This document shows, piece by piece, positions 4,861-22,862 of a DNA stretch of 64,000 nucleotides. Both the position numbers and the translations under genes were made by a program. The notes below the pieces were generated by a model. It worked only from the letters and a program-made list of their open reading frames with translations, did no database searches and was not told the origin of the DNA. The stretch spans positions 2,621,422 through 2,685,421 of the forward strand of contig OZ253471.1 of assembly GCA_965261715.1 (NCBI GenBank), in the 5' to 3' direction. How positions within the stretch are numbered: position 1 is the first letter of the stretch; the number at the start of each line of letters is the position of its first letter. The stretch is from Dehalococcoidia bacterium. Its GTDB lineage: Bacteria; Chloroflexota; Dehalococcoidia; Bin125.

Positions 4861-6051
4861 TTAGCCGCCAAGGCCGCCGAACTCGGGGAGGACTTTTTCG
4901 GCGAAGTCTTCCATGCTTCTTAGGATTTGGCCTTGCGTGAGGAGGCCGTTGTATTGCCACATGAAGACCCAGCTCACGGGGGCCACGTCGAGCATGTTTT
5001 GGACTTGCCTTTTGACGCTGTCGAGGGTTCCGGCGAAGAGGAGGCCGTTGTCTAGTTGCTCTTCGAGGGTGAGCAGTTCTCCTCCCGGTGGGCGCAGGGC
5101 TTCGGCGAAGCCGAAGGGGGCGAACCAGGCTCCTCCGGCGAAGGCGGCGGAGTGGCGCCAGAGTTCGATGGCTTCTTCGTCGGTGTCGGTGATGATCACG
5201 TCTCTGAGGACTCCGAGGCCCTCGCCCGGCTTGAGGTTGCGGCCGGCGGCGGCGGCTTCTTCCTGGTAGACCTCGTAGAGACGGTTCTGCAGGTCGGGGT
5301 ACATCGGCGGGAGGATGGCGGTGATGCCCTCACGGGCGCACCAGCGGATGGTGCGTTCGGAGGAGGCGAAGGGCTGGAAGATCGGCGGATGCGGCTTCTG
5401 CAGCGGCTTGGGAACGACGCCGATTTGGCGGACGATGTTGTTCTCGTCGACGCCCTTGCCGTACATGCGGGTCGCTTCGATGTCCCAGGGCGTGCCCTCG
5501 GGCGGAATCTGCCAGGCCTGGCCCTTGTACTCGACCATCTCTTCGGTCCAGCACTTGCGAATGATCTGGAAGTGCTCCTCGAAGGCGGCGCGGTTGGCGG
5601 CGTCAATGGCGTCGTGGTTGCCGGGGTGCGCCGCGTGGACGCCGTGGATCTGCTGGGCGAGGGTGTCGACCCAGCGTCGCTGGTAGCCCCGCGCGAAGCC
5701 GGCGAGTGCGCGTCCGCCCGACATGTGGTCGAGCATGGCGATGTCTTCGGCCACGCGGATCGGATTATGCGCTGGCAGCACGAGGCCGAGCTGGCCGACG
5801 CGGATGCGTTCGGTCTGCATGGCCAGGTAGAGGTCGAGCATGATTGGGTTGGGCGAGACCTCGAAGCCCTCGATGTGGAAGTGGTGCTCAGTAAAGCTGA
5901 TCGAGTCGTAACCGAGGGCGTCGCCGGCTTTGGCGAAGGCGGACATGTCCGTAAGCATGTCCTGGTAGAGTTCGGGACGATTGCCGGCCATGCCGGCTTC
6001 GATGTCCGCTCGTGTACCGACTGAGGGAAGGAAGAAGAGACTGACCTGCAT
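4861..6051 (-). CDS. LLM-class flavin-dependent oxidoreductase (luciferase-like monooxygenase family)
   Basis: 396-aa ORF; TIM-barrel LLM signatures (MQVSLFFLP..., FTEHHF, GQLGLVLPAHNP). Confidence 0.75.
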   Translation of the reverse strand: MQVSLFFLPSVGTRADIEAGMAGNRPELYQDMLTDMSAFAKAGDALGYDSISFTEHHFHIEGFEVSPNPIMLDLYLAMQTERIRVGQLGLVLPAHNPIRVAEDIAMLDHMSGGRALAGFARGYQRRWVDTLAQQIHGVHAAHPGNHDAIDAANRAAFEEHFQIIRKCWTEEMVEYKGQAWQIPPEGTPWDIEATRMYGKGVDENNIVRQIGVVPKPLQKPHPPIFQPFASSERTIRWCAREGITAILPPMYPDLQNRLYEVYQEEAAAAGRNLKPGEGLGVLRDVIITDTDEEAIELWRHSAAFAGGAWFAPFGFAEALRPPGGELLTLEEQLDNGLLFAGTLDSVKRQVQNMLDVAPVSWVFMWQYNGLLTQGQILRSMEDFAEKVLPEFGGLGG

Positions 6052-9200: not shown

Positions 9201-10550
9201 CTACTTCTGAGGGCGGGTGATCGCGGCGATCGGGCGGAGGGTTCGGCGGAGGACTGCTTTGGCGGTCGGTACGTTGAATACGGGCGACTTCATTCTCAGG
9301 TACATCGTGCCGAAGATGATGCTGATCACGATCGCTGAGAGGCCCATCAGGAGGAACACGTCCTGCTCGCCGATGATGTCCGCGACTGCCCCAAAGCCTA
9401 GTCCGGTGAAGGATTGGACTCCGAAGGGGAGGAATGTCAGTGCTGTGACGCGGCCGTGAAACTCGGGATTTGACTGGCGGATGATTTCGGCCGTGTTCAG
9501 GGTCTGGAATCCTGAGAATCCCGAACCGACCAGGAAGACCACGGGCAGCATGACCAGCGCGTTGGGCGTCACTCCGAGCAGCGCGACACCGAGTCCGAAG
9601 GCGCAGCTCATGATCAGGAGGATGCCGCCCGACCATCGAGTGCCGACGACGCCGGCTACTGAGAGTCCAACAATGAATGAGCCAACTCCCATCGGCCAGG
9701 TCACCAGTCCAAGATTGCGCGGATCGATGTCGAACACGTGCTCAAGCAAGCCGGGCAGGATGTTCTGGTAGGGACCTGCGGTTGCCGAGACCAACAACAG
9801 GGTGGCGAGGAGCACACGCAGTCGCGGTTGGGACCAGGCATAGCGAAGGCCGAGCAGCAACTCGCGCGTGACTGATCCTCTGGGAACGTTGCGTGGGCTG
9901 CCGGGCGGCATCAGGAAGAGCGCGAAGATCGTCACGACCAGGATGCCGGACATGATGAAGTAGGCGCCCTCGGCTCGGATGAAGGGCGCGAATAGCAGCA
10001 ACGATCCGATCACGGGGCCGACCGACTGCGGGAAGGTCAGACCGGTCTGCAGCAGCGCGACGCCGTTGCCGACGAGACGAGGCGAGACGATATCGGCGAC
10101 GTAGGCCCGGCGCGAGGGCCCGGTGAACGCAAAGCACGCGCCAAGGAAGAGGGTGCTGACGGTCAGCCAGATGACCTCGATGCGTCCGATCAGAATGAGG
10201 AAACCGATCAAGGCGTAGTTGATCGCGATTGCGGTCTGGGCCAGGGCGATCAATCGACGTTTGGAGAGCCGGTCGGTCATGGCGCCGGCGAAGGGTCCGA
10301 TGAAGAACCAGGCGATGCCGTTGCCGGCCATCGCGATGGCGACCGACGAGTTGGTTCCGCCCAGATCGAAGGCAACGATTGGCAGGACAGTGAAGTTCAT
10401 CGAGAAGGCCATGAAGGCCATCACGGTGAGCATCCAGTGCAGCCGGAACGTGCCGATGCCGAAGGCCTCGAAAGTTTGTCCAATGCCAGCGCGAATCATG
10501 TTCCGTGATCGTATGCTGTGGTCAACGTTTACGTCAGATGTTGGAGTCAA
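9201..10550 (-). CDS. MFS transporter
   Basis: 449-aa ORF with about 12 hydrophobic segments and an MFS-like pattern; alternative start about 17 codons downstream (MIRAGIG). Confidence 0.7.
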   Translation of the reverse strand: MTPTSDVNVDHSIRSRNMIRAGIGQTFEAFGIGTFRLHWMLTVMAFMAFSMNFTVLPIVAFDLGGTNSSVAIAMAGNGIAWFFIGPFAGAMTDRLSKRRLIALAQTAIAINYALIGFLILIGRIEVIWLTVSTLFLGACFAFTGPSRRAYVADIVSPRLVGNGVALLQTGLTFPQSVGPVIGSLLLFAPFIRAEGAYFIMSGILVVTIFALFLMPPGSPRNVPRGSVTRELLLGLRYAWSQPRLRVLLATLLLVSATAGPYQNILPGLLEHVFDIDPRNLGLVTWPMGVGSFIVGLSVAGVVGTRWSGGILLIMSCAFGLGVALLGVTPNALVMLPVVFLVGSGFSGFQTLNTAEIIRQSNPEFHGRVTALTFLPFGVQSFTGLGFGAVADIIGEQDVFLLMGLSAIVISIIFGTMYLRMKSPVFNVPTAKAVLRRTLRPIAAITRPQK

Positions 10551-10558
10551 CTCGGTAA

Positions 10559-11104
10559 GTGAGTAGGGCTATGGATGTCGATCAGGCCATCCGAGAGCGA
10601 CGAACGATCGGGGTGTTCTCGCAGCGGGAGGTGTCACCGGCGTTGGTGGAAGAGCTGGTTGAGGCCGCGCGCTGGGCGCCGACTCACAAGCACACCGAGC
10701 CGTGGCGATTCCATGTGGTGTCGGGGTCGGCGCGAGAAGCGATGTGTGAGGCGATTCTCGACGGCGGCGGCGAATTCACCAAGGACCCTCGCGGCAAGCT
10801 GATGCGCTCACCGCTGTTCGTGGCGGTGACGCAGGAGGCGGTATTGGATGATCCGGTGCGGGATCGGGAGGACTACGCGGCCGTCTGCTGCGCGGTCCAG
10901 AACATGATGCTGGCGGCGACGTCGAGGGGTCTGGCGACGAAGTGGAGCACGGGGGCGCTGGCGGAGAATGCTGCGGCGAAGCGCTGGCTGGGGATCGGCG
11001 AGCAGGACCGGATAGTGGCGTATTTGTATCTGGGCTATGCACCGGAAGCGATGCGGGAGATGCCGGCTGAGCGTCGGCCGGCGGAGGTGGTTTGGCGGGA
11101 GTAG
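10559..11104 (+). CDS. nitroreductase family protein
   Basis: 181-aa ORF; nitroreductase fold signatures (RRTIGVF, ARWAPTHKHTEPWRFHVV). Confidence 0.7.
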   Translation: MSRAMDVDQAIRERRTIGVFSQREVSPALVEELVEAARWAPTHKHTEPWRFHVVSGSAREAMCEAILDGGGEFTKDPRGKLMRSPLFVAVTQEAVLDDPVRDREDYAAVCCAVQNMMLAATSRGLATKWSTGALAENAAAKRWLGIGEQDRIVAYLYLGYAPEAMREMPAERRPAEVVWRE

Positions 11105-11965
11105 CGTCGGGCACAACGACATCCTTCGTGATTCCTGCGTAGGCAGGAATCACGAGGCGCCCAACGCTGTGCGGGCATCTACCTGTCGCCGTCCTCGGAT
11201 CTCCGCGCGCGGTCGCTGAGCAACGGCAAAGGCTTCGCTGCCGGCGGGCGGGCGGAGGATCGCGATTCCTGCCTGCGCAGGAATGACGGAGTTGTGGTCC
11301 TCGATTGGAGAGAGTGGATGAACTTCGCGATCGCATCAGAGGTAAGTTCGCGATCCTGGCGTATCTGTACCTGGGCTACGCGCCGGAGGCAATGCGGGAG
11401 ATACCGGCGGAGCGTCGAGCGGCTGAGGTGATCTGGCGGGGGTTGCGTCAGACACAACGACATCCTTCGTGATTCCTGCCTACGCAGGAATCACGAGGCG
11501 CCCAACGCTGTGCGGGCATCTACCTGTCGCCGTCCTCGGATCTCCGCGCGCGGTCGCTGAGCAACGGCAAAGGCCTCGCTGCCGGCGGGCGGGCGGAGGA
11601 TCGCGATTCCTGCCTGCGCAGGAATGACGGAGTTGTGGTCCTCGATTGAAGAGTGTGGATGAACTTCGCGATCGCATCAGAGGTAAGTTCGCGATCGTGG
11701 CGTATCTATACCTGGGCTACGCGCCGGAGGCAATGCGGGCGATGCCGGCAGAGCGTCGGCCGGCGGGCGGCGGTAGCGACGGACACAACGACATACCTCG
11801 TCATTCCTGCGCACGCAGGAATCACGATCCTCTTGCTGCCGCCGGGCAGCGACCCCAATTGCCGTCGCTCAGAGATTGCGCGCGGGCTCTCCCAGAACGG
11901 CTATTGGATGTACTCCGAATCAAATTGGGTGCTTCGTGATTCCTGCCTACGCAGGAATGACGGAA
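11015..11965. repeat. tandem array (~344-bp unit, about 2.7 copies) that begins inside the 3' end of the nitroreductase gene; each unit carries two ~25-bp hairpins (ATTCCTGC-N3-GCAGGAAT)
   Basis: landmark gacacaacgacatccttcgtgattcctgc recurs at ~11108 and ~11452 with a diverged third copy at ~11785; the gene tail VAYLYLGYAPEAMREMPAERRPAEV is re-encoded twice. Confidence 0.7.
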
Positions 11966-11974
11966 GTGCGGTGC

Positions 11975-12616
11975 TTACTGGTGGGAGTGGATAAATTGGG
12001 AGATCGCTTCCGCTGCTAGCTCGCGGTTGCTTTCCTCGGTGTGGCCGGAGCGCTTTCTGGGGATGAGGCCGTGGTTGCCGTCGGGGATCCATTTGAGCTT
12101 GATGTTGGGTGAGAGGTCGTAGGCCTCGACCTCCTCACGGGTTCCGTATTCGTCTCGTTCTCCCTGGACGATGAGCGTGGGCGTGGCCATCTGCTCGAGG
12201 TGGATGGTTGCTGCCCGCGAGGGATCGTTGGGGGCGTGGAACGGGTAGCTGATGCAGACCATGCCGGCTGGCTCGGCGGCGTCGGCCAGGTAGCTGGCGA
12301 TGCGTCCGCCCATGCTTCGGCCTCCGATGAACAGCTTGGAGGTTGGCACTCCCTGCTCGGCGAGCTGTTGGATGACCTGAACCCAGGTTCCGGCGAGGAC
12401 ATCCTCGGGATCAGGCGGCCAGGGACGCCGGCCAGCCTCAATAGCCCGGCGCATGTAAGGGAAGTCGAAGCGGGCGACGCGAACGCCGCGTTCGGCGATC
12501 AGCTTGGCAAGGTGTGCGGTACTGGGATGACTTGCGGATGCGCCCGCGCCGTGGGTCAACGCCAGCGTCGGCGCGGGCGGTGACTTGGGCAGATTCCAGG
12601 TCAGAGGCGTTTCCAT
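11975..12616 (-). CDS. alpha/beta hydrolase (small predicted hydrolase family with GRSMGG nucleophile elbow)
   Basis: 213-aa ORF; GxSxG motif GRSMGG; acid and His positions consistent with a catalytic triad. Confidence 0.55.
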   Translation of the reverse strand: METPLTWNLPKSPPAPTLALTHGAGASASHPSTAHLAKLIAERGVRVARFDFPYMRRAIEAGRRPWPPDPEDVLAGTWVQVIQQLAEQGVPTSKLFIGGRSMGGRIASYLADAAEPAGMVCISYPFHAPNDPSRAATIHLEQMATPTLIVQGERDEYGTREEVEAYDLSPNIKLKWIPDGNHGLIPRKRSGHTEESNRELAAEAISQFIHSHQ

Positions 12617-12649
12617 AGGATCAAGGTCGGGTTTTCCATCTGAGGGGCG

Positions 12650-12705
12650 GAAGGGACCCCCTCAGCCTGCGGCAGCTCCCCCTGCAAGGGGGAGCGGGAG
12701 GGCTT
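12650..12705. repeat. MITE/REP-like core fragment
   Basis: ccctcagcctgcggcagctccccctgcaagggggagcggga. Confidence 0.55.
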
Positions 12706-13792
12706 ATGACGTTCGCGCGATGATTGGGGCCATCTCGTCGACCAGGTCGTTGGCGGCAGCAGGATCGAGCGCGGTCAGGGCCAGGTGATCAACGCCGTGG
12801 GACTCGGCGAGTTCCGACTTCTCGATGATTTGATCGGGCGTGCCGATGATCATGTCGTTGAGCCGGTCGGCGGTGATGAAGCGCTCCTCGCCTTCCTTGA
12901 GGTAGCTGTAATGACCCTCGTGGACATCGAGGTAGAGGCGGTCGAGCGGGCGGCCTCGCTCCTCGGCGTATTCGGTGATGTACTGGTTGTACTCGGCCGC
13001 GACGTCGGGGTTGACGCCCTTGAGGTTGCCGCCCCAGCCGCCGTACTCCGACTCCCAGAGGGTGTGGTTGTAGACGGCGGCGACCGCGCCGGCGCGGTGC
13101 AGGACGCGCTCGGACATGAGGTCCTCGCCTTCCTGCATCACGCAGGCGCCGGTCAGTCCGACGGTGTAGGGCTTCTCGGTCGAGCGACCGGCAGACTGCG
13201 CGGCCTGCTCGATGATTGGGAATCCGCTGTCCAACCACGGACCGGTACCGGAGGTGACCCAGCCGTCGCCGACCTCGCCGACGACCGCGGTGGCTCGCGG
13301 GCCGTTGGCGGCGATGTAGACCGGGATGTGATCCTTGATGTTGTAGAAGTCGGGATGGTCCGGGTGGATCAGCCGAATCCAGGTCTCGCGGCCGGTAACA
13401 TTGTCGGTGTGGAGGATGTCATTGCCGTCGAGCAGGTCGCGGACTTGCTGGGCGTACTCGCGGAACTTCTTGACCGGATACGAGGGCAAACCCATCGTGT
13501 TGCGTCCGGTGTAGCCGGTGCCGAGCGCGAGAATCGTGCGTCCAGGCGCGAGCTTGTTGATCGTCGCAATGGCGGAGGCGGTGACCGGCGCGATCCGGTT
13601 GGAGGGAATCGAAACCAGCGTGCCCAGCTTGATCGTCGAGGTGCGTTCGGCGGCCAGCGCCATGGCCGCGTAGCAGTCGGACCAGATCAGCTGAGAGTCG
13701 GGGAACCAGGCGTGTGTGAAGCCCGCCTCCTCGGCGCGGACGACTTCCTTCCACATGTCGATGTAGGTGGGAACGAGCAGTCCGTAGTCCAT
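12704..13792 (-). CDS. LLM-class (probably F420-dependent) oxidoreductase, paralog 1
   Basis: 362-aa ORF; TIKLGT and GTGYTGRN LLM signatures; tandem paralog of the next gene. Confidence 0.75.
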   Translation of the reverse strand: MDYGLLVPTYIDMWKEVVRAEEAGFTHAWFPDSQLIWSDCYAAMALAAERTSTIKLGTLVSIPSNRIAPVTASAIATINKLAPGRTILALGTGYTGRNTMGLPSYPVKKFREYAQQVRDLLDGNDILHTDNVTGRETWIRLIHPDHPDFYNIKDHIPVYIAANGPRATAVVGEVGDGWVTSGTGPWLDSGFPIIEQAAQSAGRSTEKPYTVGLTGACVMQEGEDLMSERVLHRAGAVAAVYNHTLWESEYGGWGGNLKGVNPDVAAEYNQYITEYAEERGRPLDRLYLDVHEGHYSYLKEGEERFITADRLNDMIIGTPDQIIEKSELAESHGVDHLALTALDPAAANDLVDEMAPIIARTS

Positions 13793-13826
13793 ATTGGTTG
13801 CCCTTCGATTTGTCTGGGTGGTTCGG

Positions 13827-14915
13827 CTAGCCGCGCTTTTGGATGACTTCGCGGGAGAAGTCGTCGATGATTTCTCGGGCGCCGGCGGGGTCGTTGGCGG
13901 TCAGCGCGATGTTGTCGACGCCGATTGATTCGAGGTGTTCGAGTTTCTCGATGATCTCAGACCCAGAGCCGACCAGGCTGCGCTCAAGCACCTGCGGGTA
14001 GATGAAGCGCTCCTCGCCGGGCTTGAGGTAGACCATGTGGCCCTCGTGGACATCGAGGTAGAGGCGGTCCTCGGGCGTGCCCTTGGCGGCGGAGTACTCG
14101 CGGATGTAGTTGTTGTACTCGCCGGCGAGGTCAGGGTTGTCCATGCCGAGGTTGGCGCCGGGGCCGTAGGCGGCCTCCCACATCGCGTGTACGCCGGGCA
14201 CCATGGCCGGTCCGAGGATGCTCATGACTCGCTGGGATTCGACCGACTCGCCGTCTTGCAGGACGAGTCCAGAAGTGAGGCCGACCGTGTACGGCTTATC
14301 GGTCGAGCGTCCAGCGGCTTCTGCCGCGGCGGCGATCGCAGGGAAGGACTGCTGCGCGTTGAGTCCCATGCCGGTCGTGACCCAGCCGTCGCCGACCTGT
14401 CCCACGACCTCCATCGCGCGCGGCCCGTTAGCCGCAACGTAGATGGGAATGAAGTCGTCGAGGTTGAGGAATTCGGAATGCTGGCCGTGGATCAGCCGGA
14501 TCCAGCGCTCGTTGCCGGTGACATCGTCGGTGTAGAGCACGTCCTCACCATTGAGCAGTCCGCGCACCTGCTGGGCGTACTCGCGGTAGCGCTTGATCGG
14601 GTAGGCGGGCAGGCCCATGGTGTTGCGCCCGGTGTAGCCGGTGCCGATACCGAGGATGATCCGTCCCGGCGCCAACTTGTTGAGCGAAGCGACGGCAGAG
14701 GCAGTGACGGGCGCGATCCGGTTGGAAGGGATGGCGACGAGGGTGCCCAGCTTGATCGTCGAGGTGTGATGCGCGGCGAGGGCCATCGCCGCGTAGACGT
14801 CGGAGTAGATCAGTTGTGAGTCGTAGAACCAGGCATGGGTGAAGCCGGCGGCCTCGGCGCGCTGCACTTCCTGATAGGCGTTGATCCAACTGGGGATTCC
14901 GATGCCGTAGTCCAT
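13827..14915 (-). CDS. LLM-class (probably F420-dependent) oxidoreductase, paralog 2
   Basis: 362-aa ORF collinear with the previous gene (roughly 60-65% aa identity by eye). Confidence 0.75.
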   Translation of the reverse strand: MDYGIGIPSWINAYQEVQRAEAAGFTHAWFYDSQLIYSDVYAAMALAAHHTSTIKLGTLVAIPSNRIAPVTASAVASLNKLAPGRIILGIGTGYTGRNTMGLPAYPIKRYREYAQQVRGLLNGEDVLYTDDVTGNERWIRLIHGQHSEFLNLDDFIPIYVAANGPRAMEVVGQVGDGWVTTGMGLNAQQSFPAIAAAAEAAGRSTDKPYTVGLTSGLVLQDGESVESQRVMSILGPAMVPGVHAMWEAAYGPGANLGMDNPDLAGEYNNYIREYSAAKGTPEDRLYLDVHEGHMVYLKPGEERFIYPQVLERSLVGSGSEIIEKLEHLESIGVDNIALTANDPAGAREIIDDFSREVIQKRG

Positions 14916-15019
14916 TGGTGGCTCCTTGCACTCGTTGGCTGGTCAGAGGCTAATGGGTGCGGGGACTGCCGCGGAATGAGTCGATGGAGGTGAGAGAAGT
15001 GGAAGCGCGATCGAAAACA

Positions 15020-15320
15020 ATGGAACAAAGAAATGGATCGTGTGCATTGTTTGGTGCATTTCCTCGTTGCTGAGACGCGAAATGGATCGGAGAAATGGAT
15101 CGCGTGCATTGTTTGGTGCATTTCCACGTCGCTGAGACGCGAAATGGATCGGAGAAATGGATCGCGTGCATTGTTTGGTGCATTTCCACGTCGCTGAGAC
15201 GCGAAATGGATCGGAGAAATGGATCGCATGCATTGTTTGGCGCATTTCCACGTCGCTGAGACGCGAAATGGATCAGAGAAATGGATCACGCGCATTGTTT
15301 GGCGCATTTTCCGCGTCGGC
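15020..15320. repeat. tandem repeat, 62-bp unit x ~4.7 (agaaatggatcgcgtgcattgtttggtgcatttccacgtcgctgagacgcgaaatggatcgg)
   Basis: head-to-tail copies starting near 15029, 15091, 15153, 15215 and 15277; lies between the 3' end of the 15273..17015 gene and the 5' region of the 13827..14915 gene. Confidence 0.8.
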
Positions 15321-17015
15321 TGGTTCGCGTTCGGGCGGGATTGGCACGTAATGCGATCCGCGACCGCGACCGCGCCGGTTGGCCAATCCGGCGATGCAGA
15401 GGTCGTTCATCAACCGACGCGCGCGGGCGCGGGAGTAGCCGGTCAAGAATCGGACATCGGCGTTGGCCAACTTGCCACGCGACCGCAGCTCACCGAGAAC
15501 CAGCGAGGAGGCGGCCTCGTGGTCAAGCGGACCGACCGTCTGATCTCGGGCTGCCTTAGACATCAGATACTGATAGTCCGTCGCCAGCCCATACAGGGTG
15601 TGCACTCCCCGTCCACGGGCACTGAGCATGCCTCGTTCTCGGAGCGAGACGAGCGTGTCCGCCGCCTCTGATTGGGGGAGTTGCAGCAGTGTGGCGGCGG
15701 TGTTGCGATTGAGGGCGCCTTCGTTGGCCACGCCGCGCATGGCCATCAGTTCGTTGAGGTTGAGCTGCGCCCCGCTGCGAATGACGGAGGTGACGAAGCG
15801 TGCGAATGCCTCGTCTGTCCGGGTCGGCAGGGTCAGTTCGATCGACAGTCCGGTATCGCGGTAACGCGGCATCTGCTTGCCCAGCGACAGGTGGTCTTCG
15901 ATGATCCGGTCGACGCCGAGTCCGGCGCGGTTCACGAGTCCGATTTTCTGCAGGACTTCAGCGAGCAGCGGATTGCGGCGTTCGGGGGCGTGGCGCAGGA
16001 GGTTGCTGGCGGTGATGCCGCGCACGAATCCGCCCGGGCTGGTAAAGACCAACCGATCCTCGTGCAGTTCGATCTGAATCGACGAACTGATCACATAGTC
16101 GCGGTGGACGATCGCATTGAGCAGCGCCTCGCGAGCTGTGAGATTTGAGACGATGGGGATCTCGCGATGGTAGAACCCGTCGTGGATCGTCGTGACGGCG
16201 AGATTAGGTTGGAGCCACTGATCGAACTCTTCCAGCAACGCCAGAATGGGGCTGCGCGAGTCTTTGCGCAGGTCGTATTGCGCCCCGCCGGACATCCGCA
16301 GCATGATGACTTCGTGTGCGGGCGCGGCGCGGCGGATCGCGGCCGGACTGCCCAACAGCAGGACCGCGGCCAAAGACAGTCCTCGGGACGAGGCGAGACC
16401 CAGGGCCGTCAGCAGCTCAGCGTCATCGAGCGCGAGCAGGTCGCGCTGACCGCCGTTGAGCGCGACGACGTTGCGTAGTCGCTCGATCTCGCGCGGCAGG
16501 AGATCCGACGGGTCGACATCTGATACGACCTCGGCGGAAAGGTCAAATAGGCCGCGGCCGGATATGATCTGAGCGAAGTCATGGCCGGTGATCGGTTTGC
16601 TGATGTTGCCGACCCGGATTTTGCCGATCCCTTCGGAGGTCGTATGAGGCGGAATGCCCGGCAGCACACGCAGCGCCACGACTCGTCCCTCGGGCTCATC
16701 GAAGATGTCGGGATAGACAAGAATGTGCGGCAACGTGCCATCGTGAATCTCGATCCGGAGGCGGTCAAGATTGAGATCGTCGACACCGTGAATCGCCTCG
16801 GCGCGCGTACGTTTGCGGTCGGCGACGCCGAGGATTAGCGTTCCGCCGGAAGCGTTGGCGAAGGCGACCACACTCTCGCGAATCGCGCGGATCCGATCCC
16901 GGGGCGAGCGCGGCTGTGGATTCCAGGACTTGAACTCGACGGTTTGCGATTCGATCTGGTCGGCGGTTTCGCCGTCGAGACGGGCAAGTAGTGCGCGGAC
17001 GTCGTCGAATTCCAC
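15273..17015 (-). CDS. AlbA_2 (Schlafen-like) plus HATPase_c_4 domain protein, putative ATP-binding transcriptional regulator
   Basis: 580-aa ORF; N-terminal ESQTVEFKSW...ESVVAFANASGGTLILGV matches the AlbA_2 divergent-AAA pattern; the C-terminal few codons read into the tandem repeat. Confidence 0.55.
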   Translation of the reverse strand: MEFDDVRALLARLDGETADQIESQTVEFKSWNPQPRSPRDRIRAIRESVVAFANASGGTLILGVADRKRTRAEAIHGVDDLNLDRLRIEIHDGTLPHILVYPDIFDEPEGRVVALRVLPGIPPHTTSEGIGKIRVGNISKPITGHDFAQIISGRGLFDLSAEVVSDVDPSDLLPREIERLRNVVALNGGQRDLLALDDAELLTALGLASSRGLSLAAVLLLGSPAAIRRAAPAHEVIMLRMSGGAQYDLRKDSRSPILALLEEFDQWLQPNLAVTTIHDGFYHREIPIVSNLTAREALLNAIVHRDYVISSSIQIELHEDRLVFTSPGGFVRGITASNLLRHAPERRNPLLAEVLQKIGLVNRAGLGVDRIIEDHLSLGKQMPRYRDTGLSIELTLPTRTDEAFARFVTSVIRSGAQLNLNELMAMRGVANEGALNRNTAATLLQLPQSEAADTLVSLRERGMLSARGRGVHTLYGLATDYQYLMSKAARDQTVGPLDHEAASSLVLGELRSRGKLANADVRFLTGYSRARARRLMNDLCIAGLANRRGRGRGSHYVPIPPEREPADAENAPNNARDPFL

Positions 17016-17076
17016 GGCCGAACTCCGTTAGGACTCATTTATATTAATGGATCATATCAATCTTGAATCATTCTTT

Positions 17077-17110
17077 TGCGCATTGGCGCATTTCTGAACG
17101 GGAAATGCGG
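17077..17110. promoter_or_regulatory. candidate operator in the promoter region of the AlbA_2-domain gene: direct GCGCATTG/GCGCATTT plus inverted CGCATTTC-N7-GAAATGCG
   Basis: AT-rich intergenic region; the same half-sites (GCATTTC / GAAATG) recur in every unit of the 62-bp tandem array downstream of the gene. Confidence 0.3.
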
Positions 17111-17126
17111 CGTAATCGGCGCTGAA

Positions 17127-18125
17127 TTAGCGCAATTGGTAGGTTGGCGGCTTCTTCCAACGATCTGTTGGGGGATTCTCTTGCTGGGCGAGGGCTTTGC
17201 CTCTCGCCTGTTTCTCCAGCTTCTTGCCCTGGCTGATGATGCGGCGATCGTCCTGCTGCTTGAGTTTGTTCATGGCGGCCGTCGTGGGATTCTGTATCCG
17301 TTTGATCCCTCGTGAAGCTCTGACAACGCCCGATTTCTGCAAGCTCTTCAGGTGAGCCTGGACGTTGCCGTCGGCGGCCCGGCGGAGGCGCTTGTCGATG
17401 CTGTCTCCGTAGATGTTTTCCATCATCTGCCAGGAGGTCTTGGGCTCGCCGTTCTGGAGCTGTTCGAGGATTTGGTCCTCGCGCATCTGGCGGTGAGCGA
17501 CGTACATTTCGAGCCGGTCGCGTGCTTTGCTGTCCTCGGTGTCGCGGATTAGTGGGCCGTGGCCGGGGCAGAGCACCTTGATGTTGGGCAGCTTGAGCAG
17601 GCGTCGAAGTGACGCCATGTAGGAGTTGATGTCGCCGACGACTGTGGTCGTGTTGCCGAGGATGGTGTCGCCGGTGAAGAGGATGCCTTCTTCCTCGATG
17701 TAGTAGCAGAGCGAGTCGACCGAGTGACCGGGGCTGGTCATGACCTGGACCCTGATGCCGCCGTCGAGGTTGATCGTGTCTCCATCGGTGTAGGTCTTGA
17801 CGCCCTCCTTGGGCAGGCGACCCTTGAGTAGCTTGACGGCGTTCTCGGGTACGGCGATCTCTGCCTTGAGGTGCTCGTTGACGTGCTTGAGGTTGCCGGA
17901 GTGGTCGAAATGGTGATGCGTGATTGCCGCGACGCCGATTTCGGAGTGGTCGATGGCCGCGAGGTATCCGCGCAGCATCCAACGGAACTTGTCGATTGCT
18001 TCGCCCGAGTCGATCGTCAGGGTCTGTCCGCCGCGCTGACCGATGATGTAGATGTTGGTCGAGGTCGGGCGCATCGGCTGGTCCTCGGGGACCGGGACCA
18101 TGCGGACGTTGTCGCTGATTTTCAT
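17127..18125 (-). CDS. MBL-fold metallo-hydrolase with lysine/arginine-rich C-terminal tail
   Basis: 332-aa ORF; HxHxDH motif THHHFDHSG; basic low-complexity C-terminus. Confidence 0.7.
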   Translation of the reverse strand: MKISDNVRMVPVPEDQPMRPTSTNIYIIGQRGGQTLTIDSGEAIDKFRWMLRGYLAAIDHSEIGVAAITHHHFDHSGNLKHVNEHLKAEIAVPENAVKLLKGRLPKEGVKTYTDGDTINLDGGIRVQVMTSPGHSVDSLCYYIEEEGILFTGDTILGNTTTVVGDINSYMASLRRLLKLPNIKVLCPGHGPLIRDTEDSKARDRLEMYVAHRQMREDQILEQLQNGEPKTSWQMMENIYGDSIDKRLRRAADGNVQAHLKSLQKSGVVRASRGIKRIQNPTTAAMNKLKQQDDRRIISQGKKLEKQARGKALAQQENPPTDRWKKPPTYQLR

Positions 18126-18152
18126 GATGTGACCTCTCGGCTTGATGCTGGA

Positions 18153-18680
18153 CTAGAAGTCGATCCGGGCCGGGTAGCCCATGACCGAACGCGTGTTGAG
18201 GATCTGGCCGAGGTGTCCGTTGCCGTGGGCGATGCAGGTCTGCAGGATCTGCTGGGACTTGGCCTGGTGGCCGAACTGGACGACGCGGACGGTCTCGGCG
18301 AGGTCGGCGTCGGTGGATGCGTTGAGGTATTGCATCACGTCTTCGTGTACGTCGTTGAAGTAGCCGATCAGATCGCCGGTAGAGGGAATCCGCAAGCCCT
18401 GGGCGTCGGAGCGCTCCATGTCGGTGCCTTGCGCGACCTTGGGGAAGCTCCAGGACTCGTTCAGTCCCTGTCGTAGCCAGACCGGCGGTTTGCGGTCCTG
18501 GCAGACGAAGTTGACGATGTTGTCCTTGGTACGGATGTAGTGCCAGGCGTGGAAGCCGGGCGAGACGGCGTTGTCGTCGTAGCGCCAGTTGAGTTGGTCG
18601 TCGTCGAGGTCGTCGAGCGCGGCGATGTAGCCGTTATGCAGCGCCTCCATGAAGTGGATGAGGAGTTCTTGGACGGTCAT
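18153..18680 (-). CDS. DinB/YfiT-like four-helix-bundle family protein (tentative)
   Basis: 175-aa ORF with spaced His residues (HFMEALH, WHYIRT, HGNGH) reminiscent of the DinB_2 family; weak call. Confidence 0.35.
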   Translation of the reverse strand: MTVQELLIHFMEALHNGYIAALDDLDDDQLNWRYDDNAVSPGFHAWHYIRTKDNIVNFVCQDRKPPVWLRQGLNESWSFPKVAQGTDMERSDAQGLRIPSTGDLIGYFNDVHEDVMQYLNASTDADLAETVRVVQFGHQAKSQQILQTCIAHGNGHLGQILNTRSVMGYPARIDF

Positions 18681-18691
18681 TCGGTACTCCC

Positions 18692-19693
18692 TTAGCTATG
18701 ACTGCCGATGGGGATGTTGGCGACCTGCGGCGCGACATCTCGGGCGAGGAATTCGGGGACGTCGTCGCGCTCGAACATGAAGTGCTGGAACTGGACCTCG
18801 GCGACCCCGGCTTCGGCCAGTTTGCCGAGGGCGTCCACGACTTCGTCGGCGCCGCCGACGAGGCGTCCCATTGCGTTGAACTCGGTCAGGAACTCGTCCA
18901 GTGGCTGACCGGGTCGTCCGAACATGCCCTGGACAAACTTGCCTCCCGCCTCAACCAGTTCGGGCGGACCGACGGCGTGGAACATCATCATTGAGTGTTC
19001 GATTTCGTCGGGATTGCGGTCGATGGCTTCGCAGGCTCGGGCCAGGACATCGCGCTTGTGTCCGTAGGCGTCGGGTGTGAGTGAGACGCAGTTCCACTCG
19101 TCGGCGTATTTCGCGGCCATGGGGATGGTTCGCTTCTCCCCGCCTCCGCCGATCAGGATGGGCGGTCGGCCCGGCTCGGGGTTGGGCAAGCAGTCTGCGC
19201 CGTCCAGTTGGTAGTACTCGCCGCTGTAGTTGGATTGGCCGGGGCTCCAGAGCGCTTGCATGAGGTTGATTGCGTCTTCGAGGCGGTCGAAGCGCTCTTT
19301 GGTCGGCGGGAAGTTGAGACCGTAGGCGTCGTGCTCGGCCTGGTTCCAGCCGGTGCCGAGACCCATGACGAAGCGGCCGCCGGAGAGTTGGTCGATCTGT
19401 GCGGCCATGCGTCCGACATCGACTGGTCGTCGGAAGGTGACCGGTGTGACCATTGGTCCGAAGCGCAGGTTGGAGGTCTGCTCGGCGGCCATGACGAAGC
19501 TGAGGAAGCACTCAAGGCTGTCCTGCTGGTTGCTCGCGATGGGGCCGGTGAAGTAGTGGTCGCTGCGGAAGAGGGAAGGGAAGTCCAGTCGGTCGGCGAG
19601 TTTGAGGATGTGACGCCAGCGATCCCAGGTGAGACCGTTCTGTCCTTCAACCATCAGGGCGACGCGCATCAGTAGTACTCCTGCCACGCGCAT
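18692..19693 (-). CDS. LLM-class F420-dependent oxidoreductase
   Basis: 333-aa ORF; LLM signatures (FGPMVTPVTFRRP, GGRFVMGLGTGW); start may be at MRVALMVEG. Confidence 0.7.
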   Translation of the reverse strand: MRVAGVLLMRVALMVEGQNGLTWDRWRHILKLADRLDFPSLFRSDHYFTGPIASNQQDSLECFLSFVMAAEQTSNLRFGPMVTPVTFRRPVDVGRMAAQIDQLSGGRFVMGLGTGWNQAEHDAYGLNFPPTKERFDRLEDAINLMQALWSPGQSNYSGEYYQLDGADCLPNPEPGRPPILIGGGGEKRTIPMAAKYADEWNCVSLTPDAYGHKRDVLARACEAIDRNPDEIEHSMMMFHAVGPPELVEAGGKFVQGMFGRPGQPLDEFLTEFNAMGRLVGGADEVVDALGKLAEAGVAEVQFQHFMFERDDVPEFLARDVAPQVANIPIGSHS

Positions 19694-19794
19694 CGGCGAT
19701 GCGCCGGTGTTGGCATGGTAAAGGGCAGTCGTACGACCAGACCCTATGCAATCAGAGGCGCCCGGGAATCTTCTGATTACCTCCTCTCGGTGGC

Positions 19795-20153
19795 CGATCG
19801 CCCCCCCTTCTCCCCCCTCGCGGGGGAGATGCCGGAGGCAGAGGGGGGTCTCTCCATTCCAAGGCGTATCTGGTCGCTGGCGGAGGACCCCCCCCCTCTG
19901 TCACTTCGTGACATCTCCCCCCGCAAGGGGGGGAGAGGGGATTTGTGAGTTTTGCAAAGGTCTCCTTGCGGGGGAGATGCCGAAGGCAGAGGGGGGTTCC
20001 CTATCGCAATGCCTATCTGGTCGTCGCCGGCGACCCCCCCTCTGTCACTCCATGACATGTCCCCCCGCACGGGGGGGAGAGCGGAACTGAGAGTTTTGCA
20101 AAGGTCTCCGCGAGGGGGGAAGCGGGGAATGGGGTTATTCAGAGCATTCCTAG
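19795..20153. repeat. cluster of two MITE family B copies plus a family A right end
   Basis: gggggagatgccg(a/g)aggcagagggggg ... cccctctgtcac(t/c)(t/c)cgtgacatctcccc units joined by the linker ttgtgagttttgcaaaggtctcc; ends with ggggttattcagagcattcctag. Confidence 0.75.
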
Positions 20154-21283
20154 CGAGTAAAGGCGATGGCGTCGTCAAGCACGATGACGTCGACAGGATC
20201 GTCGGGATGCCAGACGACTTCGGTGCGCAGTCTCGCTTCGACTTCGACTCCCGACTGCAATCGCACACGGACGACCTGATCGTGCCCGTAGTACTCGCTG
20301 CTGATCACATTGGCGCAGTCGGGGCCGTCATCCTGGCAGGGCTTGAGCGCGAGCTGCTCGGGACGGAGCAGGATGTCGATGGGCTCACCGGTGGATTCTG
20401 TTTGCGGATCGGTAATGACCACGAAGCCCAGCTCAGTCTGGGCGCCGCCGCGGACTCGTTCACCTGGGAGGATGTTGGCGTCGCCGACGAAGGTGCCGAT
20501 GAAGCGCGTCTCCGGGCGGTAGTAGATGTCGTCGGGCGCGCCGATCTGTTCGATTCTGCCATTGCGCATGACGGCGACGCGGTCGGCGAGGGAGAGGGCT
20601 TCCTCGCGGTCGTGCGTGACGAAGACGGCGGCGGTGTTGGCCGCCTTGAGGATGTTGCGCATGGCGAGACGGAGGCTGGCTCGGAGATTCTGGTCGAGGT
20701 TGCTGAAGGGCTCGTCCAGCAGGACCGCGGCCGGCTCGGGCGCGAGCGCCCGGGCGAGCGCCACGCGCTGGGCTTCGCCGCCTGAAAGCTCGTGCGGATA
20801 GCGCTGCGCGAAATCATCGAGGCCGACGAGTTCCAGCATTTCCCTGACGCGCGCGGGTTCCTCGGTGTGTCGGAACCGGCGCAGCGGGCGGCTCCACCAG
20901 GCGTGGTGGCCGTTGGGCAGGCCGAAGGCGATGTTCTCGGCAACGCTGAGGTGCGGGAAGAGGGCAAAGTCCTGGGCGACCATGCCGATGCGGCGTTGTT
21001 CGGGTGGTCGCCAAACTCCGGGTCCGACGGCGGTCTCGCCGTTGATCTGGACCAGACCGCGGTCGGGTCGCTCGAAGCCAGCGAGGACGCGCAGCGTCGT
21101 GGACTTGCCACAGCCGCTGGGTCCGAGCAGGGCGACGATCTCGCCGTGCTGGACCTGGAACGAGGCGTCGCGGACGGCGGCAGTTTCGGCGAACGACTTC
21201 GTTACCTCTCGCACGACCAGCGCCGGGGTGAGGTTGGGATGGCTCTCGGGTTGACTATGCGCGGAGGTCACGGTCTTGTCCAA
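20150..21283 (-). CDS. ABC transporter ATP-binding protein (Fe3+/polyamine importer type, C-terminal TOBE-like domain)
   Basis: Walker A GPSGCGKST, ABC signature LSGGEAQR, Walker B LLDEP. Confidence 0.8.
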   Translation of the reverse strand: MDKTVTSAHSQPESHPNLTPALVVREVTKSFAETAAVRDASFQVQHGEIVALLGPSGCGKSTTLRVLAGFERPDRGLVQINGETAVGPGVWRPPEQRRIGMVAQDFALFPHLSVAENIAFGLPNGHHAWWSRPLRRFRHTEEPARVREMLELVGLDDFAQRYPHELSGGEAQRVALARALAPEPAAVLLDEPFSNLDQNLRASLRLAMRNILKAANTAAVFVTHDREEALSLADRVAVMRNGRIEQIGAPDDIYYRPETRFIGTFVGDANILPGERVRGGAQTELGFVVITDPQTESTGEPIDILLRPEQLALKPCQDDGPDCANVISSEYYGHDQVVRVRLQSGVEVEARLRTEVVWHPDDPVDVIVLDDAIAFTR

Positions 21284-22862
21284 ACAGCAGGATCATCGGT
21301 ATTGCGGCGCAGCCGAGCAAGAGCAACGCGTCGGCCGCTGCTCGGGCGAAATACACATCTGCATGTTGTACCCAGAGGTCGGTGGCCAAGGTCTCGAAGC
21401 CAATCGGCGAAAGCAGCAGTGTGGCGGGTAGTTCTTTCATGGTCGTGAGGAAGACCAATGCGAACCCGGCCAGCACGCCGGGCGCGATTAGGGGAAGCGT
21501 AACGCCGTAGAAGGTTTGCCAGGAGTTTCGGCTGAGCGAGCGCGACGCCTCTTCCAGTCCCGGCTGCACCCGAACCAGGGAGGAACGGAGTCCGGAAATA
21601 GCCTGAGGCAAGAAGAGCACGACGTAGGCGAAGACGAGGATCGCGAGTGTTTGATACAGACCGGGAGTCACTCGCAACGAGAAGAAGATCAACGCGAAGG
21701 CGACCACGATTCCCGGTAGGGCGTACCCGACGTATGCAGCGCGGTCGATGATCCGCGAGAGGAAGCCGGGGCGACGGACGACGACGATCGCGACCGGCAG
21801 CGCCGCTGCGACAGCGACGGCTCCCGCGAGGGCTGATGCTTCCATGGAGTTGAGGGCGGCGGTCCAGAGTCCGGGGAAGGTCTCGCCCTGCTCGATGCCA
21901 TTCGCGAGCCAGTGGAACAACACCGCGACCGGGACGAGCAATGCGAGGGCTGAGATCACGAACAGACCGAACACGGCGGGCCAGCGCAGGCGTCGCAGTT
22001 GAATCAGTCTTGGAGTACGCGCTGCGCCACTGCCGAGCCGGTGATAGCGAGCGTTTCGTCGTTGCGACCAGTCAACGGCCAGGACGACGGCGATCAGGCC
22101 GACGAGCACGATGGAGAGGACGGCAAGGGTTGAGCGATCGAAGGTCGAACCGAAGCGCACATAGATGGCACGGGTGAAGGTGTCGAATCGCATCATTGAG
22201 ACTGCGCCGAAGTCGGAGATGACATAGAGGGCCACCAGCAGTCCACCGGCGGCAAGGGGCACACGCAACTGCGGCACGGTGACTCGCCAGAACGCTCCCC
22301 AGGCGGACTGCCCCAGCGAGCGGGCCGCTTCCTCGATTGCGGGGTCGAGATTGCGCAGCCCGGCCCTGATCACCAACAGCAGATAGGGATAGGTGAACAG
22401 GGTCAGCACGAGCCAGGAGCCAACGAAGCCGTAGAGGGAGGGGATGTGGTCCACGCCGAGAGGGGCGAGCAACTCCTGCAGCGAACCGTGGGGTCCAAGC
22501 GCGACGATGAAGGCGAATGCGCCGACATAGGAAGGAACGGCGAGCGGCATGATCGTGATCGAGCGCCACCAGCGGGCGAAGGGCAGATCGGTGCGCTCGG
22601 TCAGATAGGCCATCGGTAGGGCCAGGGCGGCTGAAGTGGCGGTAACCGAAACTGCGAGCGCAGCGGTGTTGAGCAGCAGTCGCAGGGTCTCCTTGGAGAC
22701 GATGTCGGCCCAGGCATCGGTATCGGCCTGGGCGGCTCGGACGATCAGGTAGATGAGTGGAATGCAGGCCGCAGCGGCTGCCGCGATTGCCAGGATCCAG
22801 ATGATGGGGATGTTGAAGCGGAGGCGCGATGGAATTTCGGCGGTTCCGCTGAGGAAGCTCAT
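21255..22862 (-). CDS. ABC transporter permease, duplicated-domain type (iron(III) permease FbpB-like)
   Basis: 535-aa ORF with about 12 TM segments as two repeated halves; overlaps the ATPase gene. Confidence 0.7.
   Translation of the reverse strand: MSFLSGTAEIPSRLRFNIPIIWILAIAAAAAACIPLIYLIVRAAQADTDAWADIVSKETLRLLLNTAALAVSVTATSAALALPMAYLTERTDLPFARWWRSITIMPLAVPSYVGAFAFIVALGPHGSLQELLAPLGVDHIPSLYGFVGSWLVLTLFTYPYLLLVIRAGLRNLDPAIEEAARSLGQSAWGAFWRVTVPQLRVPLAAGGLLVALYVISDFGAVSMMRFDTFTRAIYVRFGSTFDRSTLAVLSIVLVGLIAVVLAVDWSQRRNARYHRLGSGAARTPRLIQLRRLRWPAVFGLFVISALALLVPVAVLFHWLANGIEQGETFPGLWTAALNSMEASALAGAVAVAAALPVAIVVVRRPGFLSRIIDRAAYVGYALPGIVVAFALIFFSLRVTPGLYQTLAILVFAYVVLFLPQAISGLRSSLVRVQPGLEEASRSLSRNSWQTFYGVTLPLIAPGVLAGFALVFLTTMKELPATLLLSPIGFETLATDLWVQHADVYFARAAADALLLLGCAAIPMILLFGQDRDLRA

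Follow-up and report, generated by a model that had tools for sequence, protein, structure and literature searches.

A strain-variable 62-bp tandem array beside a Slfn-HisKinase-wHTH gene of Dehalococcoidia, a probable amplified operator module

Introduction

What is the role of a 62-bp minisatellite placed between two genes of an uncultured bacterium? The question is raised by a stretch of 64,000 nucleotides of a Dehalococcoidia bacterium (Chloroflexota; assembly GCA_965261715.1, contig OZ253471.1, forward-strand positions 2,621,422 to 2,685,421), which was analysed as a whole and is designated here as the window. A tandem array lies in it between the stop codon of a gene coding for a 580-aa protein with AlbA_2 (Schlafen, Slfn) and HATPase_c_4 domains and the next gene, which codes for a luciferase-like (LLM) oxidoreductase. 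All local genes are on the minus strand, and gene orientation refers to this strand. The array is a genuine variable-number tandem repeat (VNTR). Judged from the conservation of its half-sites, it probably represents an amplified operator module for the adjacent Slfn-HisKinase-winged helix-turn-helix (wHTH) protein. The features are:

15029-15318, minus strand: 62-bp minisatellite, 4.7 copies (Tandem Repeats Finder and repeat finding)
15318-15257, 15256-15195, 15194-15133 and 15132-15071, minus strand: repeat units in gene orientation, followed by a degenerate fifth from 15070 (units printed in register)
15071-15318, minus strand: four complete composite modules (motif counts and anchored alignment with orthologous modules)
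15009-15070, minus strand: decayed fifth module, the closest to the LLM gene, with its second reverse site mutated to GTTCCATTGT (motif matches and register)
15273-17015, minus strand: gene of the 580-aa AlbA_2 and HATPase_c_4 protein (Pfam, alignment and translation)
13827-14915, minus strand: LLM (F420/flavin-type) oxidoreductase gene 3' of the array (Pfam and NCBIfam)

Structure of the array

At 15029-15318, Tandem Repeats Finder reported a period of 62 bp, 4.7 copies, 95% matches, no indels, and a score of 501. Its consensus is identical to the one quoted in a preliminary description of this DNA, which had reported about 4.7 head-to-tail copies. A second repeat-finding method recovered the identical 62-bp register. 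The units are 94-100% identical to each other. The array had been described as downstream of the 580-aa gene. It does lie between this gene and the LLM gene, but the reading frame extends 46 nt into repeat unit 1 and the TGA stop (15273-15275) is inside that unit, and therefore the array is not wholly downstream. The last 15 codons and the stop are repeat unit 1 sequence, with the tail ...ADAENAPNNARDPFL, and the protein exceeds its 562-566-aa relatives by 14-18 residues.

Each 62-bp unit consists of a module of about 47 bp with four half-sites and of a 15-bp linker. In the window, the forward half-sites of the module are GAAATGCRCC and ACAATGCRYG, 12 bp apart, and after them comes the reverse pair GATCCATTTC-NNN-GATCCATTTC (13 bp apart); GYGCATTG-N4-GYGCATTT and two copies of GAAATGGATC are found per unit. 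The motif GYGCATTK occurs nine times in the array, twice at 17078-17093 in front of the 580-aa gene, and only three times in the rest of the 64 kb, which agrees with the half-sites previously reported as common to the array and the promoter of this gene. There are exactly nine copies of GAAATGGATC in the 64 kb, every one of them in the array, and the spaced pair GATCCATTTCNNNGATCCATTTC has four exact matches in the window against 0.00 expected. The direct pair GATCCATTTC-N3-GATCCATTTC is the most conserved element of the array; the preliminary description had mentioned it just as an inverted GAAATGG. GATC (Dam-type) sites are neither depleted nor enriched in the window (494 observed, 477 expected).

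A coding repeat was rejected, as 62 is not a multiple of 3. A CRISPR was rejected as well, in agreement with the preliminary description, as the whole 62-bp unit repeats and there are no unique spacers.

Copy number in close relatives

The locus was recovered from several assemblies by exact-protein look-ups. The window is 99.98-100% identical to the ENA contig ERZ25068833:ctg52355. Identities to the window and copy numbers are as follows:

Window and L001: identity 99.98-100%, 4.7 copies
L002 (circular 3.5-Mb contig, 75x): identity 98-99%, 5.7 copies, the additional unit being interior
L004: identity 92-94%, 6.8 copies, with a 124-bp higher-order pattern
L016 (Dehalococcoidia metagenome-assembled genome, MAG): identity about 94.7%, at least 5.5 copies, the array meeting the locus edge
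L021 (Dehalococcoidia MAG): identity about 94.7%, at least 6.5 copies, the array meeting the locus edge

Copy number differs at flank identities of 92-100%, and therefore the array is a true VNTR of this uncultured Dehalococcoidia lineage. The polymorphism between strains, which the preliminary description had proposed to look for, is thus real. The coverage of the window's own contig is only 3x. An assembly artefact was ruled out, as the array is present in independent assemblies including the circular contig of L002.

A conserved module in orthologous loci

The gene order MBL-fold gene, regulator (as the 580-aa protein and its orthologues are called here), LLM, LLM, hydrolase is kept in lineages where the regulator is 73-78% identical (L005/L018, L007, and L008/L012). 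No high-identity array was found at these loci. The spacer of 330-400 bp is otherwise unalignable, yet it contains three (L005/L018), two (L007), and one (L008/L012) diverged modules. When the modules are anchored on GATCCATTTC-NNN-GATCCATTTC, GAAATG-like sites stand always at -23 and usually at -11, in the orientation opposite to the pair. In lineages with regulators of 73-97% identity, the half-sites of the module are at the fixed offsets -23, -11, 0, and +13. Four sites are conserved amid a diverged spacer, and therefore the unit of function is the four-half-site module of about 47 bp. Their fixed offsets in old copies, while the flanks decay, indicate purifying selection on the sites.

These old copies bear on the view that the array is a selectively neutral minisatellite, in which an old site was duplicated by slippage or unequal crossing-over without any function. 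The units are nearly identical and their number varies between near-identical strains, the 124-bp pattern in L004 is typical of unequal exchange, further VNTRs are close by (11016-11827 and 19816-20118), and distant relatives have no high-identity amplification, all of which suits this view. It accounts for the amplification but not for the module, as sister lineages with one to three old copies keep the four half-sites, and we regard it as improbable. If neutral is understood of the copy number only, it is compatible with an amplified operator module.

The 23-mer GATCCATTTCNNNGATCCATTTC was also searched in 185,579 species genomes, one genome per species. Multi-copy matches were found only in five MAGs (given as Dehalococcoidia), of which four carry this orthologous locus and the fifth is Candidatus Spongiihabitans. 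Nine single matches in unrelated phyla have no regulator homologue there (tblastn, E below 1e-5) and were treated as chance or local 13-bp duplications. The almost complete confinement to one locus leaves hardly any probability for a dispersed or mobile repeat (like mycobacterial interspersed repetitive units, MIRUs, repetitive extragenic palindromes or miniature inverted-repeat transposable elements), a replication iteron, or a CRISPR-like array, and the core does not occur elsewhere in the window. With its unit size within 40-100 bp and its location between genes of an operon-like cluster, the repeat does resemble MIRUs, and the flanks of the gene are relatively AT-rich. An iteron or origin was rejected, as no Pfam rep or transposase gene is among the scanned neighbours, the cumulative GC skew is monotonic without a switch, and the locus is on circular contigs of chromosome size (2.46 and 3.5 Mb). 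With no replication context, the earlier wording "iteron-like" survives as a loose analogy only.

In Candidatus Spongiihabitans sp. (L011 2685-2745, NZ_OZ252047.1), the 13-mer GATCCATTTCTCC, identical to a part of the window unit, occurs about five times, directly 5' of an oxygenase-like gene and 3' of a ferritin-like gene. There is no homologue of the 580-aa protein within 8 kb of this repeat. A related factor may act on it in trans, or the match may be a coincidence.

A different repeat, a 10-bp microsatellite GGTTTCGCCG, is present in the regulator-LLM spacer of a sister lineage (L005 5939-6002, 6.4 copies; L018 about 5430-5475, about 4.4 copies). This spacer is thus repeat-prone in more than one way.

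Half-sites upstream of the 580-aa gene

Half-sites of the array type are found also in front of the gene:

17016-17126, minus strand: upstream (promoter) region of the 580-aa gene with array-type half-sites
Half-sites in this region: GCATTTC at 17088-17094; GAAATGCG at 17102-17109; GCGCATTG/GCGCATTT at 17078-17093; TGATCCATT at 17046-17054

The TGATCCATT site occurs otherwise only in the array (three matches, 0.39 expected) and had been overlooked in the preliminary description. The promoter palindrome quoted there, TTGCGCATTGGCGCATTTCtgaacggGAAATGCGGC, was found at about 17076-17111, but the palindrome CGCATTTC/GAAATGCG (17087-17109) is specific to the window lineage and is not the conserved element. 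What is conserved upstream of the regulator in all syntenic lineages is a series of several RAATG sites with one reverse site, GATCCATT(T) or GATGCATTT (GATSCATTT), and a core AAATGATTCA-N6-TGATATGATSCATTT. GGAT and GCAT swap at the same position between orthologues, which ties the GAAATGGATC of the array to a more general RAATGCAYC.

Motif association across the protein family

When metagenomes were scanned with an alignment of 49 family members, 61 loci from unrelated environments were obtained, with relatives of 32-52% identity. Motif density was computed for 39 non-redundant relatives, which are roughly 40-52% identical and come from unrelated metagenomes. Within 150 bp downstream of the stop codon, the density of RAATG[CG] is 12.9 per kb, with 75 sites observed against 9.3 +/- 3.0 in shuffled sequences (maximum 18 of 500), an enrichment of about 8-fold. 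In the 120 bp before the start codon it is 5.1 per kb, with 24 sites against 8.6 +/- 2.9 (maximum 17), or about 3-fold. Coding sequences and far flanks have 1.5 per kb. Among the 20 permutations of AAATG, which are matched in composition, AATGA, AAATG, and ATGAA are by far the commonest upstream of the relatives. Clusters of at least three AAATG/CATTT almost only adjoin the gene, immediately upstream or, more often, immediately downstream. Neutral non-coding DNA would be randomised at about 40-52% protein identity, and therefore selection acts on the motif, which accompanies the gene. No paper describing a cis motif or an operator for the Slfn-HisKinase-HTH class was found in literature searches.

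Upstream, nearly all relatives have a conserved promoter-like module, and the consensus of 17 of them is CATTnnAATGAnTATTGACGCATTnnnnnAATGnnnTATTAT. AATG/CATT elements bracket the -35 and -10 hexamers in 17 distant relatives. As the start codon follows the -10 element by about 8-10 nt, the mRNAs of the relatives are probably leaderless.

Downstream, direct RAATGCRCC repeats are present together with an inverted pair RAATGCNCC-N4-6-GGNGCATTY. In many relatives (L024, L025, L026, L028, L031, L032, L048, L070, L072, and others) the TGA stop is embedded in an RAA|TGA half-site, and the cluster thus starts precisely where the coding sequence ends. It is present irrespective of the next gene, be it a DEAD/DEAH helicase, an nSTAND-like gene, a YhcG nuclease, or an LLM gene. 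Of the sites, 49 are forward and 26 reverse; direct pairs are preferentially spaced by 9 bp and inverted pairs by 15-16 bp. Inverted pairs keep the half-site consensus only, without full complementarity. Both orientations and the conservation of half-sites only are more in line with a protein that reads double-stranded DNA than with an RNA stem.

The same data bear on the alternative that the repeat acts as RNA, in a 3'-untranslated region, a 5'-leader or a small RNA, either as a structured element or as binding or cleavage sites of the Schlafen RNase. The array is between co-directional genes and is probably transcribed, some relatives are named "RNA-binding domain-containing protein" at NCBI, and the catalytic motif of Slfn is conserved. 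The orientation and complementarity of the half-sites speak against this alternative, and identical motifs are present in the untranscribed promoter region. An Rfam scan of 10000-22000 gave no match in the array and only sub-threshold matches to miRNA models at 19812-19997, in an unrelated palindromic repeat. Folding compared with shuffled sequences gave z = -1.9 for the gene strand and 0.02 for the other strand, and the array is not clearly more stable. An action as RNA is therefore considered very unlikely.

More weight, though still a minor one, is given to a functional cis-element that is read by another factor (a transcription factor or a nucleoid protein) or is a part of the promoter architecture. 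Binding by the adjacent protein is a deduction from the position of the sites, GATCCATTTCTCC is repeated five times in Candidatus Spongiihabitans before an oxygenase-like gene with no regulator homologue within 8 kb, and the -35 and -10 hexamers are interspersed with AATG elements. Across phyla, however, the clusters almost only adjoin genes of one protein family, and on both sides. A global factor would have to be conserved across phyla and yet act only there, while a promoter element does not fit the many copies in both orientations.

Among the gene neighbours of these relatives, a large DEAD/DEAH-box helicase with the conserved N-terminus NIPQAVRELIxEYRRFLRTSYRFLD is the next gene in at least 11 distant ones (L024, L026, L028, L033, L035, L037, L054, L062, L066, L070, and L072). 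The helicase, nSTAND-like, and YhcG-type neighbourhoods are defence-like, while the neighbourhood in the window is metabolic. Tandem Repeats Finder detected no high-identity amplification of the module at the 61 distant loci. In L051 (about 2380-2500), the promoter module seems to be tandemly duplicated upstream, with two copies of CGCAATAAAATGAATA..GCATT..GAAATGTT.TATTATC. By count from the sequence, the offset is about 75 bp, and the duplication is below the threshold of Tandem Repeats Finder.

The 580-aa protein

In Pfam, the protein has an SLFN_AlbA_2 domain (PF04326) at residues 22-142 (E = 3.4e-16) and a HATPase_c_4 domain (PF13749; minimal GHKL/HisKinase-like) at residues 311-396 (E = 9.7e-20). 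The C-terminal 190 residues have sub-threshold winged-helix matches to TrmB, DIP2311-like_C, IclR, and MarR, as two wHTH domains, and homologues carry precomputed HTH families. The Schlafen nuclease motif is present as E22-x4-E27-x-K29. In the 49 sequences, E22 is invariant, and the conservation of E27 and K29 is at least 90%. The general form of this motif is E-x4-(E/D)-x-K, as stated in a passage of PMC13056530. With its Slfn motif, HATPase_c_4, and then HTH, the 580-aa protein belongs by domain order to the Slfn-HisKinase-HTH class.

According to passages of PMC13056530, "HisKinase-HTH" fusions are 19.2% of prokaryotic Schlafens, and the HisKinase-related tests given there concern only fusions without HTH. 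Proteins composed of Slfn RNase, minimal HisKinase, and wHTH are described near BREX loci in a passage of PMC12839542. The conserved nuclease motif and the class membership suggest that the 580-aa protein is possibly more than a regulator. The preliminary description had called it a regulator, but it carries the nuclease motif, and its class is treated as defence effectors in the passages of both papers. The label regulator is thus an assumption, and the protein may act as an RNase effector that binds DNA and controls its own expression as well.

NCBIfam has no family for this protein, and the only PADLOC matches, weak and partial ones to models of pAgo and Aga, cover the HATPase part. There is no second copy (paralogue) of the gene in the 64-kb window.

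LLM promoter and gene neighbourhood

The remaining features of the locus are:

18692-19693, minus strand: LLM gene
18153-18680, minus strand: DinB_2 gene, an open reading frame (ORF) assigned by means of the gene calls of L001-L003 and of a tblastn match
17127-18125, minus strand: MBL-fold gene (Pfam)
14973-14982, minus strand: lone proximal half-site GACTCATTCC (GGAATGAGTC on the plus strand), overlapping the putative LLM -35 (from sequence, with a presumed role)
14947-14976, minus strand: putative LLM promoter, TTCCGC at 14971-14976, 18-nt spacer, TAGCCT at 14947-14952 (predicted from conserved hexamers)
12704-13792, minus strand: LLM paralogue (Pfam and NCBIfam)
11975-12616, minus strand: hydrolase gene

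TAGCCT is invariant in six lineages, about 37 nt 5' of the LLM ATG. A TTCYGC-like hexamer is kept 17-18 nt above it in the six lineages, and a Shine-Dalgarno sequence is present. A strict sigma-70 consensus scan of 14800-17300 found no promoter-like site, the TAGCCT promoter included. An intrinsic-terminator scan of the same region found four terminator-like sites (16381-16398 and 17153-17288), none of them in the array. The proximal half-site is at the same place in other lineages, as GACCCATTCC in L004, GATCCAATTCC in L008/L012, and ATCGTTTC in L007. In the module alignment, the modules end 149-247 bp before the LLM ATG. This layout would be compatible with one proximal operator and distal sites that act cooperatively or titrate the protein.

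Two other repeats were found in the window. At 11016-11827, a 341-bp unit is present in 2.4 copies with 90% identity. It begins within the 3' end of a nitroreductase-like ORF (10559-11104, plus strand) and occupies the convergent spacer toward the hydrolase gene. Strain L002 (98-99% identical) has a 269-bp period in 2.0 copies at the equivalent place, which makes it the second variable repeat, at a distance of 3 kb from the array. At 19816-20118, a 144-bp unit of G-run/C-run palindromes (GGGGGGAGA...TCTCCCC) is present in 2.1 copies in the spacer that separates the first LLM gene from an ABC-transporter gene. Alignments of the window to L016 and L021 break at this repeat.

Proposed function

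The array is best understood as a composite cis-regulatory module of about 47 bp, with two forward and two reverse RAATG-type half-sites, that was amplified in tandem recently and in this lineage only. Unequal recombination or replication slippage would have multiplied one module to 5-7 or more nearly identical 62-bp units, with about 18-28 half-sites. The module is most likely a docking site on double-stranded DNA for the adjacent protein, which may bind through its C-terminal wHTH domains. The preliminary description had proposed the sites as the operator of the AlbA_2 protein. The module footprint, the sites in the gene's own promoter, and the family-wide enrichment of RAATG(C/G) all point in that direction, and binding itself is what we infer from them. 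Half-sites bracketing the -35 and -10 hexamers imply autoregulation, which would act by promoter occlusion. The second cluster, starting at the stop codon, would precede whichever gene follows, in this clade an LLM oxidoreductase operon, where one proximal half-site lies over the putative LLM -35 and the modules are 150-250 bp upstream. With more sites, local occupancy would increase or the protein would be titrated.

Several points weigh against this operator reading. The Candidatus Spongiihabitans repeat, with no regulator gene nearby, leaves room for another binder that acts in trans. The reverse half-site GAAATGGATC differs at one position from the family consensus RAATGCNYC, and the wHTH matches of the protein in Pfam are below the gathering thresholds. 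Modules 150-250 bp from the LLM start are far for a simple repressor, and the assignment of the LLM promoter is just the conserved TAGCCT motif. The array stands ahead of the second LLM gene, as the preliminary description had noted in suggesting a regulon link, but there is no other half-site cluster and no wider regulon visible in the 64 kb. The amplification itself could be selectively neutral. In the passages of PMC13056530 and PMC12839542, Slfn-HisKinase-wHTH proteins are treated as RNase or defence effectors, not as transcription factors. The only solved relative, PDB 3LMM, is an "uncharacterized protein". If binding was deduced wrongly, what remains is an ordinary single-locus VNTR.

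A wider proposal, which is speculative and rather unlikely as a whole, takes the RAATG modules as a family-wide "home-locus docking platform" bracketing Schlafen RNase-HisKinase-wHTH genes. Autorepression would be coupled to keeping a potentially toxic RNase sequestered or to activating it. The copy number of the array would then set the amount of protein held on DNA and the insulation or control of the LLM genes, and this Dehalococcoidia lineage would possess such a platform as a hypervariable 62-bp array.

According to PMC13056530, in its passages on this class, Slfn-HisKinase-HTH proteins are about a fifth of bacterial Schlafens. The half-site RAATG[C/G]NYC on both sides of the gene across phyla is a concrete candidate ligand for their winged-helix domains, and the flanking sites suggest tight autoregulation together with control of the following gene. 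The cis-motif for this uncharacterised protein class is previously undescribed, and the array is a tandemly amplified composite module of putative binding sites. Loci with 1, 2, 3, 5, 6, 7 or more modules form a natural allele series for relating site number to occupancy or expression.

Comparison with known systems

MIRUs are a dispersed family at about 40 loci of Mycobacterium, and their units carry short in-phase ORFs. Supply et al. (1997, 2000) reportedly described them as intergenic VNTRs, for example as 77/53-bp repeats between senX3 and regX3. The array resembles them in its tandem units of 40-100 bp between co-directional genes, its strain-variable copy number, and the first unit that supplies the stop codon of the upstream gene. 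It differs in that the unit is confined to one orthologous Dehalococcoidia locus, is with 62 bp not a multiple of 3, and is built from predicted protein-binding half-sites.

Plasmid iterons and the 11-bp repeat sets of ParR-parC are multi-site operator arrays of autoregulated DNA-binding proteins. They share with the present locus many short half-sites with a spacing of about one turn, direct and inverted, beside or within the promoter of the presumed binder. Here, however, there is no replication or partition context, the 47-bp four-site module is itself amplified, and the binder is only presumed. In the hmw genes of Haemophilus influenzae, upstream 7-bp repeats tune expression by copy number. 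Such tracts are similar as variable tandem units between an upstream gene and the next promoter, but their units of 1-7 bp act via spacing or phase variation, whereas each 62-bp unit carries a complete module.

A further relation is to the HisKinase-HTH class of prokaryotic Schlafens, with which the 580-aa protein shares the order of domains (Slfn/AlbA_2 with E-x4-E-x-K, HATPase_c_4, and C-terminal wHTH). In the passages on this class its members are defence effectors, whereas the neighbours here are metabolic (LLM, MBL-fold, and DinB). The same passages give no DNA target, while here a conserved DNA motif flanks the gene.

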